DNA of 64,000 bases, from contig CBEUCH010000003.1 in assembly GCA_965541585.1 (NCBI GenBank), positions 32,001 through 96,000 on the forward strand, written 5' to 3'. Made by a program: the position numbers. This stretch comes from an uncultured bacterium (lineage in GTDB: Bacteria > Zixibacteria > MSB-5A5 > UBA10806). Positions 12,001-21,000 of this stretch are shown here, in pieces; positions within the stretch are counted from its first letter, which is position 1, and the number at the start of each line of letters is the position of its first letter.

Positions 12001-15000
12001 TCGAGACCTTCGCCGTGCCTCGAATCAGGGGAGCGATACTCGATGAACTCAGGGCGCTGGACTGGGTGCCCAGATCTACCAGGGCGAAGGCGAGAAGCAT
12101 CGATAAAGCCCTGATGAAGCTGGAAAACGAGCTCGGACGCGGCCCATCGGATAATGAATTGGCCAAGAGGATGAGTATTTCGGTCCACGAACTCTTCTCC
12201 GCACGGAAAGATGTCAACGTATCGACCCTATTATCCCTCGATGAGTTGATCTGTCGCGAGGATGATAACCGCCAGGTCCCTCGAATCGAAACTGTCCAGA
12301 ATACGACCACTATAGATGTCTTAAATGACATGGAGAAAACCGAACTCAGGGTGTTCGTCATCGAAACTATCAGCAGCCTCACCGAACAGGAACGGCTCGT
12401 GGTATCGCTGTATTATTACGAGGAACTTACTTTGAAAGAGATTGGAGATATAATGCTGATCTCGGAGTCAAGAGTATCGCAGATTCATACGAGGGCCGTT
12501 ACGCGCTTGCGGAGTTCAATCAGGGATAAGTTCGGAATTTAGCGTCTTCTCAGTTTGAGGATCGGGAGATTCGTTGTGAATGAACGTATCGAGCGAAATA
12601 GTGCCCTGACCAAGGCCGAGCCGGTAAGGGAGGTTCGGCAGCCGAAGGAGAGTACCGCCGGAAAGCCGAATAAGAAATTTGTGGCTGAGATAGAAAAAAG
12701 GATTTCCCGGGAAAAGGACCGGAAAAAACAGGATAAAGAAAAGGACGAGATAGTTTTGCATGATGAAGATGAATCGCCCGTCGAAGACGACAGCAAAGAC
12801 GACGATAGCAACATGGATCGAAATAGCCAGCCACCGCCGCCGTCTCCCGACGGTCGGAGAGGGAAGAAGATCGACGTTCTGGCATAGGTTGGAGGAATGA
12901 TGTATTTAGTAGTTTTAGCGATCTCAGCTCTGAATTTGATGATCGTATCCGGAATGTTTCTTCTTTTATTTCGCGATTCCAGAAAGCGGGAAAAAACAGC
13001 GGCCGAGGACAGGCAGTCATTATACTTACTGCAATCGAAATTGCTGGAGAAGTTAAAAGGTGTCGAGCAGGCACATTCCTCGCTGTCTCAGGGCGAGCGA
13101 GTTTTCGATCCTATCGTAGCTCCCGGCCCTGACAAGAATAGAATAAAAGCAGCCATAGACAAATTGAATAGCGGGATGGCTCCGGATATTGTGGGTCGAG
13201 AATGTGGCTACTCAAGGTCTGAAATGGGAATAATTCGCGCTTCTGCAAAGATGAATAGTATGGCCCCCGGCCGGTCTTCTACGCCCCTTTAGTAAAATGG
13301 GCATTTGCCGATAAAATATATGTCTATTACCGCGTGAGGGGCTAATTGATGTCAAATAAACACGAACCTTTCTTTAAAATCAAACTCGAATGCCCGGTCT
13401 GCGGGCAGATAAATAACTTCGAGGTTGTCAAGCAGGGTGAATATACTGAATCGGGCCGGGACACCGATTTTGCACCGGTAGGGCGGATCTGGAAAAATCC
13501 GGCCTATCAGAAATATCATCCACTTCTGTTTTTCACGGCCACCTGCAAGAAATGTTATTATACCAGAGAACTTAACTCTTCATATAAAGAATGGCAGAGC
13601 GACTCGAATTTCAAATCTTACCGCTTACCGTCGCAAAAAAAGAAACATTTAGCGGAATTCAAAAGCGATGACAGCATTATCAGATTATTGGGCGATCAGA
13701 TTAATATCGATTCTTACCCTTTTGAATCGGCCATAATCAAACTGCTGTTGGCAATATATGATGATAATCTGCATGATCGATGCTCGTCGCTGGATATCGC
13801 CAGGTATTTTATTCGCATCGGCTGGGTTTATCGCGATCACGACCATGATGATGTTGGCCAATCCGCAGCGCAGCTGATGCTGAACAAAATACAGATAGAG
13901 ATCGATCGGCTCAAGAATGAGGCGGGCAAATTCAAATCCAGTATCTCTCCGCTGCATCGCCTCATTTCTCAGGATTTTGATAGCGTTGTTGGCTCGCCTT
14001 CCGGGAACGCCTCTTCATCAAAATTGAAATCAACCATGGAAAACATTCCGAAGGTCTGGAGCTCTCTTCTAAATAATGTCGAACAGCTTCAGACCGAATT
14101 CGACGAGGTCAAAAAGGAGATGCACCAGCCTCACTCGGATTCTCCTGAACCGCCAGGGTTCGGCGAATACCCCGGGTTTTGCGATTTTCTCTACAAGGTT
14201 AAGGAAAAATGGAATGAAATACCAATCAATGAGACCGAAGCCCTGGCGCTGGCCCTCAAATATTATATGAAAGCTTATCAAGACAGCCGCGAAATAAAAG
14301 CGGGCCTGCAGCAGCTTCAGGCGGCATATCTGATTGCCGAGCTCTCACGACGGGTCGGCGATCTCTCGCAAGCCGCCGAATATTTTAAAATTTCCAGCAA
14401 GTTAGCGCAGGAATTAATGATGAAAAACAGAAACGACAAATCGATATTCTCCAATGCCCGGAAAGTTTTTGAGATGGCTCTCGAACAAGGGCGCAGCGCC
14501 AAAGAGGTAGCTCGGGTATCTTCATGAGAAAAAAACAACTCAAAAAAGACGATTCCTTGGAGCTCTGGGAGAGGCTCCTACTGGTGATCGAAAAAGACGG
14601 TATTCGCTCGGAGTTCATAACCCGCCTCGAGGATATCAAACAGAGTTCGTATATTCTTGAAATGCCGATCAGGCAAAGCGGGAATGCGACTCTTTCGAAA
14701 GGAGATGTTGTGAAGGTAAGTTATAATAAAAAGGACGCCGCCTATACGTTTAAGGCCAGCATCAAAGATTTATTTGAGGGAGAGAGTAGCTCAATCGAGG
14801 TGGGAAAACCGACTGATGTCAGCCGGATCCAGAGACGGCAATTCGTCAGGCTCGATATATCCGGCAATCTTGGCTTCAGGATTCTGGAATCTCCTGAAAG
14901 CAATGAAGGCAGTATAAGCCAGAAATTTCAGGGGTCCCTTTTGAATATCTCTGCCGGAGGCGTGCTCTTCGAAACTGAAACTCCAATCAAAGCCGACAGC

Positions 15001-18000: not shown

Positions 18001-21000
18001 AATGCCCGCTTGAGAAAGATTCCCCCCGATGACGACTCTCGGGATATTCTCGAACTGATTTCAGAGCAGGTCAGTCGTATTGAGACCGTTCTGGATCGCT
18101 TCTCCAGCGTGGTAGCCTTCCGCGAAAAGGAGGAAAGAGAAATCCCGCTGGATCATCTGATTCAGGAGACTCTGGGGATGCTCTCCGGCGATGAAAACCT
18201 CAACTCACCTTCTCTTATAATGGCCGATGATATTCGGGAAATGACAGTGTTAATCGATAAGGATCTGTTTCATCAAGCTCTGATGGTCGTTTTGAGAGAG
18301 GCGGCGCGAATAGCCGGCGGAATGAATAATATCGCTATTAATGTGGAGAAACATTTTGATTCGGCCATGATTTTTATTTCCGGCGGTGATGATTGCGAAA
18401 AATTTGCCGAAATTTTCTATAGCGGTCTGAGATCGAGTAATGGAGATAATAGATGTCAGGAAATGGCTGTTGCCCTTGAGATATTGCAGCATTATGGAGG
18501 AGACGTCGGCATCGGATCATCCGGGGGACTTCATGGTCGTCTATATGTGGAGATCCCCCTGTGCAGGGAGGAAGCATGAAGAATATCTTAATTGTCGATG
18601 ATGAGGAAGGGATTCGCGGCTTGTATGAAAGCGAACTGCAGACGGAAGGCTTTACAACGCATGCAGTATCGTCAGGCGAGGAAGCGCTGCAGTATATCGG
18701 TGAGAATCGACCGGTCGATCTGGTGATACTCGACATCAAAATGGAAAACTTGAATGGCCTCGAAATCCTCGAAGAGCTTCGGGCCAAAACCGACTCCGTT
18801 CCGGTAATTCTAAATTCGGCCTATTCTACCTATAAGAATAATTTCACCTCCTGGCTGGCCGACGCCTACCTGGTTAAATCCTCGAATCTAACGGAATTGA
18901 AAGATAAAGTTAAGGAGCTGTTAGCCTTTTGAAAGTTCAAAATAAAAACGAAGGTCCCGAGCTTCTGGATCGCATTGAATGCGTCTCCAATGACATCCAG
19001 CTTCTGGCATTGAATATCGCCGTGGCGGCAGCCAAGATGGCCCAGAAGAAAGATCCCGGCCTGGAGGTGCATCACAAGCTCTCGCAATTAGTCAATCGGG
19101 CCACTCAGACCGTCAAACATATGACCCAGATTATCAGTGCTGCAAAAACCAGTAATGACACTAAAAGCGTCATCGCGGATCGCCAGAATATCCAGGTCGA
19201 TCAAGACCTTATAGAAAGCATCGAAGCCGCCATGCAGGGTATTATCGCAGATTCGGAAAAGATTACCAGTCTTCTGGGCAATCTGAAGCAAAGGCGATAG
19301 GCCAATGCCTGCGGGAACCGTTTTGATCGTGGAGGATTCTCAGGACGTCAGAAGCGTCATGGCCGAGATCGTCTCTCTATTCGGATATGACGTTTCTGTG
19401 GCCGAAGATGGTCTCGAAGCCTTACGCAAACTTGCTTCCCACACGTATAACCTCATAATTACCGATATGGGGATGCCGAGAATGGGGGGAGAGGACCTCG
19501 TTAAAAGTATGAGACAGGGCGGTATCGAAACGCCGGTAATACTTATCGCGGGCGTCGATATCCAGAGGCGAAAACTCACCGACAATACTTTGACGAATTG
19601 TAGTTTCGTTAAAAAACCATTCATTATAGAGGACATCAAAGAGACGATATCGGAGCTCCTAAAAATCGATGCGGAAAAGGAAATAAACGAAAAAACTAAA
19701 TAGATGGCCTGTATGAACGATATAATAGCATAGTTGACAAATAACAAGATTATGGAACTTAATTCATCGAGATTAAACAAAGGCGTGGTAAAATGAAAGA
19801 GTATGCAAAAATCCTGGTCGCCGACGACGAAGCCATGATGCGCAATCTGATATTGAAGATATTGGAGTCGGAGGGTTACCAGGTCTCAGTTGTCTCGTCC
19901 GCAGATGAGGCGCTGGAAAAGCTAAAGGATGAAACTTACGACTTACTCCTGACAGACGTAAAAATGCCCGGTATGACGGGATTCGACCTCTTGAAACAGG
20001 TCAAGGTCGAATGGCCGGGAACGGCAGTCATCATAATGACGGGCTACGGCGACGCATACAGCGTTAAAGAAGCACTGCTGCTGGGGGCGGACGAATATCT
20101 ATCCAAGCCTTTCAAGCGGCAGGAGGTTACTCTCATTGTCGAGCGGGCATACTGGCGTCTCCTCTCAGCCCGAAATATGGAAAAACAAGAAAACTCGACT
20201 CAGCCGATTACCGAGCTCTCGAAATAGCGGGCGCCTGTGTAGCGGGCAGATCAAAACTCCCGACGGATCTGGCCCTTTAGCCGATCTCGCGCTATGATCA
20301 ACCAGCCTTCCGAAAGGGAGGCTTTTTCTTTTCTGCAAACGCGGGGGCATAGAAAAATATTCATTCCTCATAAGAAAGAATTTCCCATCAATTGTCCATA
20401 CCAGAGCCGGATCTAAACGGCAGGGTTTTAGCAACGACCTCGCCTTGAGCATCAACCGGTTGAGTATTAATAAGTTATAGCCGACCAACCGAAGGCTCAT
20501 TTCTTCCGGGGGAAAATCTTGAGGGTCTTTCCCATAAGGCATGGGAATTGCTTTGTACGGGCCGGGTTCTGATATCGATTTGGAGGTATTTGATGATAAA
20601 AGGCATTTACGATTCGGCTTCCGGGATGCTCCCGCGGATACTCAAACAGGAAATCTATGCCAACAACATGGCCAACGTTAACACGCCGGGATTCAAGAAA
20701 GACGGCGTTTTCCTTCAGCATCTCAAGGATGCCTCCGAGGGATCCCTGATCACCGATCTTCCCTGGGAAACTCCGATGGTTAACGATATCTATATAGATT
20801 TTAGCCAGGGCGCACTGGAAAGAACCGATAACCGGCTGAATCTTGCCCTGGAGGGCGATGGTTTCTTCGTAGTCCAGACAGAGGCAGGGATAAGATACAC
20901 ACGTAACGGGAATTTCTCTATATCACCGCAGGGAATATTAACCGATAATAACGGGAATCCAGTACTCAGCGATTCCGGGCCGCTTACGGTTTCCGGCGAT

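Follow-up and report, generated by a model that had tools for sequence, protein, structure and literature searches.

A phylum-wide cassette of receivers, a HisKA protein and a receptor-tip-like protein within the flagellar genes of a Zixibacteria genome without chemotaxis genes

The draft genome of an uncultured member of the Zixibacteria (98.2% complete, 40 contigs) encoded a complete flagellar gene set, comprising motAB, flgBC, fliEFGHIJK, flgDE, fliLMNOPQR, flhBAFG, fliA, flgFGAHIJ, flgN and flgK, together with a flagellin-like protein of 637 aa, csrA, fliW, flagellin, fliD and fliS. We analysed a stretch of 64,000 nucleotides of this genome (the window, from whose first nucleotide all coordinates are counted), in which fliM (2469..3461; Pfam FliM, 1.8e-61) was followed by a conserved block of genes reaching from fliA up to, but not including, flgF. 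The gene positions given for this block in a preliminary description were all confirmed, and every gene, including fliM, was on the + strand. The block opened with fliA, encoding sigma-28 (11775..12542; Sigma70 r2, r3 and r4), which also preceded the module in those related loci that extended far enough. Next came two small conserved ORFs of 110 and 131 aa (12555..12887 and 12897..13292), with no Pfam family over cut-off and with orthologs in family relatives at 31-50% identity, the longer one having a hydrophobic stretch at its N-terminus; a DUF2225 protein of 393 aa with N-terminal CxxC pairs (13346..14527; PF09986, 9e-19), present in 31 of 41 related loci; a YcgR-like PilZ protein (14524..15273; PilZN, PF12945, 1.6e-9; PilZ, PF07238, 1.3e-8); and an ORF of 185 aa with a signal-peptide-like N-terminus (15270..15827), which matched no Pfam family and showed 37-43% identity among family orthologs. 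These were followed by a GAF protein (15953..16831; GAF_2, 3.1e-13) and a 575-aa protein with PAS-like, GAF and HisKA domains (16852..18579; Pfam HisKA, 5.4e-10), the end of whose gene was overlapped by the start of receiver 1 (18561..18932; Response_reg, 2e-23). A gene for a 123-aa protein resembling the tip of MCPs (18929..19300) began within the last 4 nt of receiver 1, and receiver 2 (19305..19703; Response_reg, 6.3e-20) and receiver 3 (19793..20227; Response_reg, 2e-31) completed the series. A consensus scan placed a terminator-like hairpin and T-run 3' of receiver 3 (20304..20333, + strand), which is weak evidence because the regional count of such sites was not above that of shuffles. 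The next flagellar block began with flgF (20548..21324; Flg_bbr_C, LlgE_F_G_D1 and Flg_bb_rod).

The steering of flagella is accounted for, in nearly every case, by the CheA-CheW-MCP-CheY pathway. When the whole source genome was searched in six frames with HMMs, CheW, CheC and CheX gave 0 matches, and the best scores for CheR (E 0.45) and CheB (E 0.13) amounted to none, leaving no adaptation or phosphatase protein of these Che families. A CheA was likewise absent from the source genome, in which Hpt, the dimerisation domain (H-kinase_dim) and the CheW-like P5 domain each had 0 matches; control genomes, among them E. coli and B. subtilis, gave the expected positives in the CheA-type searches. 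The sole MCPsignal match was the 123-aa gene itself, at 29.6 bits against a gathering cut-off of 34.6, so that neither a CheW adaptor nor a full-length MCP was found in the genome. The earlier claim of a full flagellar regulon without chemotaxis genes was thus borne out.

The PilZ protein contained, besides PilZN and PilZ domains over cut-off, the sequences RRQFVR and NISAGG, which match the c-di-GMP-binding motifs RxxxR and (D/N)xSxxG of a YcgR-like receptor. The last 93 aa of the GAF protein gave a weak HisKA match (E 0.004) over a DHp-like hairpin at the C-terminus, in which alignment placed a Lys where the phospho-acceptor His belongs; this His was kept in a sister-family ortholog and in two orthologs of family f7. 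All three receivers were single-domain proteins of the receiver fold, with Response_reg over cut-off and with the conserved acidic residues and Lys in place. Receiver 1 had as its best PDB match TrrA (3a0r_B; 1.3e-28, 103 bits versus 66 for the runner-up), and its D13, D14, D58 and K106 were invariant across 26 orthologs. Receiver 2 was the least conserved of the three, with D11, D54 and K104 invariant in 12 orthologs, and its slot was taken in other families by a CheW-domain or CheB-like protein. Receiver 3 was a single-domain, NtrC/FixJ/Spo0F-like protein bearing a conserved ERAYWR tail, and in the PDB it was matched best by the receivers of FixJ, Spo0F and NtrC. Its identity to the CheY encoded in the che operon of a family member was 34%, compared to 45-72% among its own orthologs. 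It was not an ortholog of that CheY and, judged by sequence, falls outside the canonical CheY proteins. The N-terminus of FliM read MAQVLSQDEIDALL, the docking peptide for CheY-P.

In the 575-aa protein the DHp hairpin was intact, with phospho-acceptor His370 and the HExxN motif kept and H370, R373, N374 and P375 invariant across 15 orthologs. No HATPase_c domain was detected at E<=0.01 in the whole protein or at E<=10 in its last 175 aa, and the protein was not among the 32 HATPase_c matches of the source genome. Profile alignment to ThkA and ZraS from the PDB showed Glu in place of the N-box Asn and ksqema in place of the G2 box GtGLGL; as read from sequence and model, the N, G1 and G2 boxes were lost, with the G1 Asp and G2 glycines replaced, and the protein had no ATP-binding domain carrying the N, G1, F and G2 boxes. 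Its AF2 model (pLDDT 77) nevertheless kept a kinase fold in the C-terminal domain, Foldseek matches being sensor kinases, and a helix (515-527) occupied the expected position of the ATP lid. By sequence and model, this is the architecture of ChpT and Spo0B, a His hairpin joined to an ATP-blind Bergerat-like domain. The protein had been described as a GAF-HisKA kinase; its GAF and HisKA domains and its length stand, but the kinase label lacks support, there being no HATPase_c match and no ATP-binding motifs. We predict that it is ATP-blind; lacking ATP-binding motifs, it cannot simply be the phosphodonor, and by analogy with ChpT it is more likely to be a phosphotransferase or phosphatase.

The cassette was conserved phylum-wide in the Zixibacteria and co-occurred with Che in most relatives, where it lay alongside complete che operons; the suggestion that it is present instead of Che genes did not hold. 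In one Che-positive family member a 13-gene che operon was situated on a separate contig from the module, and this operon had no counterpart in the source genome beyond paralogs of 26-36% identity. The best explanation is that the lineage kept the cassette after losing the entire che operon. We tentatively postulate, with somewhat less than even confidence, that this cassette 3' of the flagellar sigma gene acts after che loss as a GAF-gated phosphorelay or sink that feeds receiver 3 to the motor, together with a c-di-GMP brake. In such a pathway the 575-aa protein would not autophosphorylate and would work, under GAF control, as a histidine phosphotransferase and/or phosphatase among the three receivers, like ChpT or Spo0B, with phosphoryl groups coming from another kinase or a small-molecule donor. 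A candidate donor would be the bona fide PAS-HisKA-HATPase_c kinase encoded upstream of motA; that the phosphodonor is no more than a candidate weighs against this explanation. Receiver 3 would be the output, docking on the FliM N-terminus and biasing the motor; the YcgR-like PilZ protein would add the c-di-GMP brake, and the MCP-tip protein may be an adaptor. The non-Che two-component and c-di-GMP motor control proposed previously is supported by the Che-less flagellum, the PilZ motifs and the FliM peptide, but only in part: an active kinase, a replacement of Che and a purely motor role find no support.

The core of the cassette (575-aa protein, receiver 1 and MCP tip) was found in all 10 FliM-negative genomes sampled. 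Flagella-less lineages, with FliM in 0 of 20 genomes of family f16, 0 of 9 of f15 and 0 of 3 in one genus of the source family, kept this core along with fliA, the PilZ protein and the GAF protein. These counts overstate the independent events because the genomes are related, flagella having been lost about three to four times. Since the core outlives the flagellum, the cassette is not purely a motor controller and could be directed elsewhere than at the motor. Alternatively, then, the core might regulate something that persists without flagella, for instance sigma-28 activity, gene expression or a surface/biofilm switch, leaving the motor with no tactic input save the c-di-GMP brake; flagellates without Che, such as Aquifex aeolicus, are known. 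We regard this alternative as unlikely, though a serious contender, for the place of the cassette within the flagellar operon was fixed, the FliM docking peptide was strictly conserved in Che-less genomes, and receiver 3 disappeared along with the flagellum. The peptide, LSQ[DE]EIDALL, was kept in 7/7 CheW-less, FliM-positive genomes examined from three families, next to a variable linker, although its retention could also reflect another partner or recent Che loss. Receiver 3 adjoined the module in 27 of 31 FliM-positive genomes (being absent from the locus in two) versus 1 of 10 FliM-negative genomes, and two flagella-less genomes of the source family, both of one genus, had no match to it above 43% identity, compared to 69-75% for family orthologs. 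Of the cassette parts, only receiver 3 tracks the flagellum.

A further possibility concerns the 123-aa protein. As a protein it scored 31.5 bits against MCPsignal (PF00015), again under the cut-off, in agreement with the sub-threshold likeness reported before. Its relatives formed 110 clusters of 110-131 aa, some with a precomputed PF00015 match, and shared an invariant IQxLALNIAxAAAK, a hairpin-tip motif that aligned with LLALNAAIEAAR of solved MCPs. Its profile matched MCPs both in the PDB and in a library of 1.84 billion proteins, and its AF2 model (pLDDT 73) consisted of helices at 8-39, 45-80 and 92-122. The MCP tip, the ATP-blind HisKA protein and the receivers might assemble into a complex independent of CheA and CheW that sets flagellar behaviour via receiver 3 as a non-canonical CheY. 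Such a hybrid of two-component system and chemosensory array would be phylum-wide and the sole motor input left in Che-less lineages; we give it a low probability.

It is improbable that the 575-aa protein replaces CheA at the motor in the classical two-component way, as an active histidine kinase under GAF control with all three receivers as its direct substrates. The invariant His of its HisKA domain, the adjoining receiver of cognate type and the kinase fold retained in the C-terminal domain would all suit such a kinase, and in the f16 orthologs the N, G1, F and G2 boxes were all complete, which makes the ancestor a kinase. Canonical boxes were confined to these two orthologs, however, and in 13 of 15 orthologs, as here, the N-box Asn, G1 Asp and G2 glycines were replaced; the lack of any HATPase_c match and the co-occurrence of the module with CheA in most relatives also argue against it.

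CheA and CheW were both missing from one set of 11 genomes among the 24 of the order. In the family, 4 of 13 members had CheW, as did 9 of 10 genomes in the sister family, while neither congener had it; these figures reproduce the earlier tallies, and the congeners lacked CheA as well. Whether CheW-less relatives keep their flagella had been in doubt; two family members assembled as single contigs (G252 and G253) retained FliM without CheA, CheW or an MCP over cut-off, and G253 contained the whole syntenic cluster. That che genes lie hidden in assembly gaps, a concern raised before and conceivable for a 40-contig draft of 98.2% completeness, is scarcely credible given that all eight Che-related families were absent, that both congeners and both single-contig relatives were equally Che-less, and that CheA and CheW were missing from exactly identical genomes. 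The combination of a full flagellum with no Che genes is real.

One family contained both Che-positive and Che-negative flagellates, and in all of them the cassette combined a receptor tip, three small receivers and a kinase-like protein devoid of ATP-binding motifs. Should receiver 3 dock on FliM, the motor would be biased independently of CheA, and the case would show what a receptor tip is capable of without CheA and CheW; the predicted kinase-active form in one family and kinase-dead forms in others would offer a natural series for studying the passage from kinase to phosphotransferase or scaffold. If the cassette spares the motor, the genome would represent another Che-less flagellate with an uncharacterised sigma-28-linked phosphorelay. 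Like Aquifex aeolicus, a flagellated bacterium without chemotaxis genes, it combined complete flagellar genes with no CheA, CheW or MCP, but here Che-positive and Che-negative members occur in one family, and a receiver-rich cassette and an intact FliM peptide remain. The PilZ protein shared the PilZN and PilZ architecture of the YcgR-type flagellar brake, with c-di-GMP binding predicted. Compared to MCPs (PF00015; the soluble receptor 3G6B of T. maritima and the PcaY-type 6S18), the 123-aa protein was collinear over some 115 residues around the hairpin tip, with a conserved LLALN-A-EAA-type motif; it lacked sensor, HAMP and methylation helices, had three predicted helices and a variable loop, and persisted where CheA and CheW were absent. 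The lid of ChpT is replaced by helical turns and ATP is not bound (PMC3433190). ChpT of Caulobacter and Spo0B of Bacillus resemble the 575-aa protein in domain plan, with a His-bearing DHp hairpin and a non-ATP-binding Bergerat-like domain, to which the 575-aa protein adds PAS-like and GAF sensor domains. The Cle proteins of Caulobacter, described as CheY-like proteins that act on the motor outside the Che pathway (PMC5677366), provide a precedent for receiver 3 as a putative non-Che motor regulator. The best solved match was ThkA/TrrA of Thermotoga maritima (PDB 3A0R; 1.8e-15 for the 575-aa profile against ThkA, 1.3e-28 for receiver 1 against TrrA), with which the locus shared a sensor domain, a HisKA DHp with HE(I/V)RNPL and an adjoining gene for a single-domain receiver. 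The N-box Asn and the G2 GtGLGL are present in ThkA but not in the 575-aa protein, and the Zixibacteria locus adds to the ThkA/TrrA plan a GAF domain, an MCP-tip gene, two more receivers and the context of a flagellar operon.

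The plus strand of the window carried one long flagellar gene string, in which fliA (11775-12542, +) and flgF (20548-21324, +) bounded the cassette region; the flagellar set was complete once 20 kb upstream was included. Between these two genes lay, in order and including every gene that the preliminary description named there, two small ORFs, a DUF2225 protein, a PilZN+PilZ (YcgR-like) protein, a 185-aa ORF, a 292-aa GAF protein (15953-16831), a 575-aa GAF+HisKA protein, a 123-aa receiver (receiver 1, 18561-18932), a 123-aa MCPsignal-like protein (the MCP tip), a 132-aa receiver (receiver 2, 19305-19703) and a 144-aa receiver (receiver 3, 19793-20227), all on the plus strand. 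Packing was tight: the 575-aa gene overlapped that of receiver 1, a 4-nt overlap joined receiver 1 to the MCP-tip gene, and receiver 2 started 4 nt past the end of the latter. There was a faint indication of a terminator-like hairpin 3' of receiver 3. The sigma-28 promoter pattern TAAA-N13-17-CCGATA had no match in the window, a sigma-70 promoter scan of the region did not rise above shuffles, and a sequencing-run search found no RNA run, the best DNA run having 0.36 of words in common.

Elsewhere in the string, FliN (3451-4092) was 213 aa long with a long acidic N-terminal extension holding two near-identical copies of a stretch of about 40 residues (...DEAK.ESTDENE.TEPS.KETE.SA.DHIEEAP...). 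The string was broken between fliJ and fliK by minus-strand genes for two large proteins of secreted type, with IPTL-CTERM motifs: a 943-aa subtilase with TSP3 repeats and a 987-aa CarboxypepD_reg protein (L012:9735-15580, equal to contig C3:21735-27580). A sugar-modification block (window 30262-38053), with the look of an island for flagellin glycosylation, separated fliW from the gene for a 751-aa flagellin; it encoded a TPR protein, an NAD epimerase/dehydratase, a DegT-type aminotransferase, a hexapeptide acyltransferase and a 956-aa TPR-glycosyltransferase-2 protein. The last gene of the flagellar cluster (window 44552-45448) encoded an HDOD+HD protein 26% identical to the HDOD protein encoded in a Che-positive family member's che operon.

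The claim that this genome has no Che genes was borne out. Searched in six frames with HMMs, the 98.2%-complete assembly yielded no CheW, CheA dimerisation domain, Hpt, CheC or CheX, no more than chance-level matches for CheR and CheB, and the MCP-tip gene as the sole notable MCPsignal match. Across the order, CheW and the CheA domain were present in the same 13 of 24 genomes and lacking together in the same 11, and MCPsignal exceeded its cut-off in 11 of 24. Within the family, six genomes (this one included) had FliM and lacked CheW, four had both and four had neither. Two family members without CheW and CheA, both with FliM, were single-contig assemblies, one of them with the whole syntenic cluster. 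A Che-positive family member carried, on another contig, a 13-gene che operon encoding CheA, two CheW-type proteins, an MCP, CheR, CheB, CheD, HDOD, two CheX-type proteins and three receivers (one a canonical-looking CheY), for which this genome offered no counterparts beyond paralogs at 26-36% identity. The UvrA gene flanking that operon (82% identical) lay inside contig C6 here and the other flank was not conserved, so that no clean deletion scar could be made out. An assembly gap as the cause of the missing genes is very unlikely because of the single-contig Che-less relatives with FliM, the matching absences of CheA and CheW, and the lack of any counterpart to the relative's operon.

The order fliA-DUF2225-PilZ-GAF protein-575-aa protein-receiver 1-MCP tip-(receiver 2)-receiver 3 recurred in loci of the Zixibacteria families f1, f2, f7, f8, f10, f12 and f18, with a reduced form in f15, f16, f19 and f20. 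Most cassette families were CheW-positive (9/10 genomes in f2, the sister family, 89/108 in f7, 14/14 in f8 and 32/33 in f10), so that the earlier reading of the cassette as standing "instead of" Che did not hold. An old cassette, it is normally found alongside Che, which has simply been lost in this lineage. Among the papers listed in literature searches on Zixibacteria flagella and chemotaxis, on their motility and histidine kinases, and on Che-less motile flagellates, none had a title or abstract opening that concerned the cassette. The gene following the MCP tip encoded a 322-aa protein ending in a CheW domain (1.1e-38) in one f8 genome (L037:1179-2147, -) and a CheB-methylesterase-like protein of 202-205 aa that has no receiver in two f12 genomes (L051:7507-8115, +; L056:7472-8089, +), and for this reason the cassette looks pieced together from Che-derived and two-component elements.

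The MCP tip scored 31.5 bits against MCPsignal (cut-off 34.6) and belonged to a family of 110 clusters, 110-131 aa long, whose named clusters all came from Zixibacteria and in which the motif IQxLALNIAxAAAK was invariant. Its profile matched MCP tips in the PDB (E 0.005-0.013) and, in a library of 1.84 billion proteins, small proteins ahead of full-length MCPs, the latter aligned over profile positions 5-120; an ESM Atlas look-up returned Zixibacteria clusters only, plus one cluster with MCPsignal in 15% of members. The AF2 model consisted of three helices, and as a monomer it gave no Foldseek match in the PDB at E<=0.001, the best being a T. maritima soluble chemoreceptor (E 0.63). A CheZ-like phosphatase role, considered from an invariant Gln and Asn, was dropped, both being generic MCP-tip residues.

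The 575-aa protein, previously called a GAF-histidine kinase, is probably not a kinase, judging by its sequence and model. HATPase_c had no match over the whole protein, a search of the final 175 aa at E<=10 was equally empty, and none of the 32 HATPase_c matches in the genome fell on this protein. The DHp and CA parts of its ortholog profile aligned to ThkA (1.8e-15) and ZraS (1e-13), against which it has Glu for the N-box Asn and ksqema for the G2 box GtGLGL. Residues H370, R373, N374 and P375 of the HExRNP motif were invariant in 15/15 orthologs; canonical N, G1, F and G2 boxes were kept in two, both from f16, and were degenerate in the other 13, from seven families. Among the sampled families f16, without flagella or Che, was the only one with canonical ATP-binding boxes in this ortholog (L013:8864-10810, -; L014:9200-11002, -). 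The fold was kept in the AF2 model (pLDDT 77): PAS-like and GAF domains, a long helix, the DHp and a domain of alpha/beta type. Its helix 515-527 lay where we expected the ATP lid, and Foldseek matched the model to sensor kinases. Complex prediction with two copies each of the DHp-CA part, receiver 1 and the MCP tip scored 0.00 in two runs made without controls, a result that weighs on neither side of the question of binding. In the DHp-like hairpin of the 292-aa GAF protein, Lys took the place of the His; in an alignment, f7 and f2 orthologs (L016:8540-9406, -; L046:7421-8308, -; L021:5979-6848, +) kept the phospho-acceptor His (NHEINNPL) that this genome's family has lost. Two f7 genomes with a His-keeping GAF protein lacked the 575-aa protein and receiver 1, and the short GAF-DHp protein may therefore take over there.

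FliM occurred in 222 of the phylum's 285 genomes and was not found in f15 (0/9), f16 (0/20, also 0/20 with a protein query) or one genus of this genome's family (0/3). Among 41 compared genomes, kin with roughly 3-4 independent flagellar losses and with loci chosen by MCP-tip match (tip presence thus uncounted), receiver 3 stood beside the module at ortholog level in 27 of 31 FliM-positive genomes (of the other four, two lacked it, one locus was ambiguous and in one a contig end cut the gene) and in 1 of 10 FliM-negative ones. In the two searched genomes of the family's flagella-less genus, the best genome-wide match to receiver 3 was 40-43% identical, versus 69-75% for family orthologs. One FliM-negative family member (L029, G258 contig C53) still had receiver 3, while its 575-aa gene and receiver 2 each aligned in two pieces, which suggests recent flagellar loss with cassette decay beginning, or assembly errors. 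The 575-aa protein was found in 26/31 FliM-positive and 10/10 FliM-negative genomes (nine at >=245 bits, the tenth a 233-aa ORF at 56 bits), and receiver 1 in 25/31 and 10/10; both were missing in five FliM-positive genomes, and receiver 1 alone in a sixth whose locus was cut by a contig end. Because the core thus outlives the flagellum, it may regulate something other than the motor, the main rival to a motor-directed role.

The FliM N-terminus in this genome read MAQVLSQDEIDALL. LSQ[DE]EIDALL, which we take to be the CheY-docking peptide, was followed by a variable linker in 7/7 examined genomes, spread over three families, that have FliM but no CheW; by this signature the motor is one that still expects a CheY. 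The acidic pocket, phospho-Asp and Lys were kept in all three receivers. Receiver 3 was the best conserved, with a family-specific ERAYWR tail and only 34% identity to a relative's che-operon CheY.

In the best-supported overall picture, the cassette would have an ATP-blind HisKA protein at its base and serve, under GAF gating, as a phosphorelay or a sink for phosphate, with receiver 3 as the flagellum-directed output docking on FliM, the PilZ protein as a c-di-GMP brake and the MCP tip as a putative adaptor. A candidate phosphodonor, proposed purely by inference, would be the bona fide PAS-HisKA-HATPase_c kinase encoded with a sigma-54 activator just upstream of motA. Directly upstream of motAB (L024, contig C3:5001-12700, upstream of the window) lay a partner-switching trio of GAF-SpoIIE phosphatase, RsbW-like HATPase_c_2 kinase and STAS protein, followed by a 201-aa receiver protein, that kinase and the activator, which is NtrC-type (FlrBC/FlgSR-like). 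Since receiver 1 is TrrA-like (103 bits versus 66 for the next PDB match), it and the 575-aa protein recall the ThkA/TrrA pair. In ChpT, as described in PMC3433190, the lid is replaced by helical turns and no ATP is bound; by sequence and model, the 575-aa protein appears to follow the same pattern.
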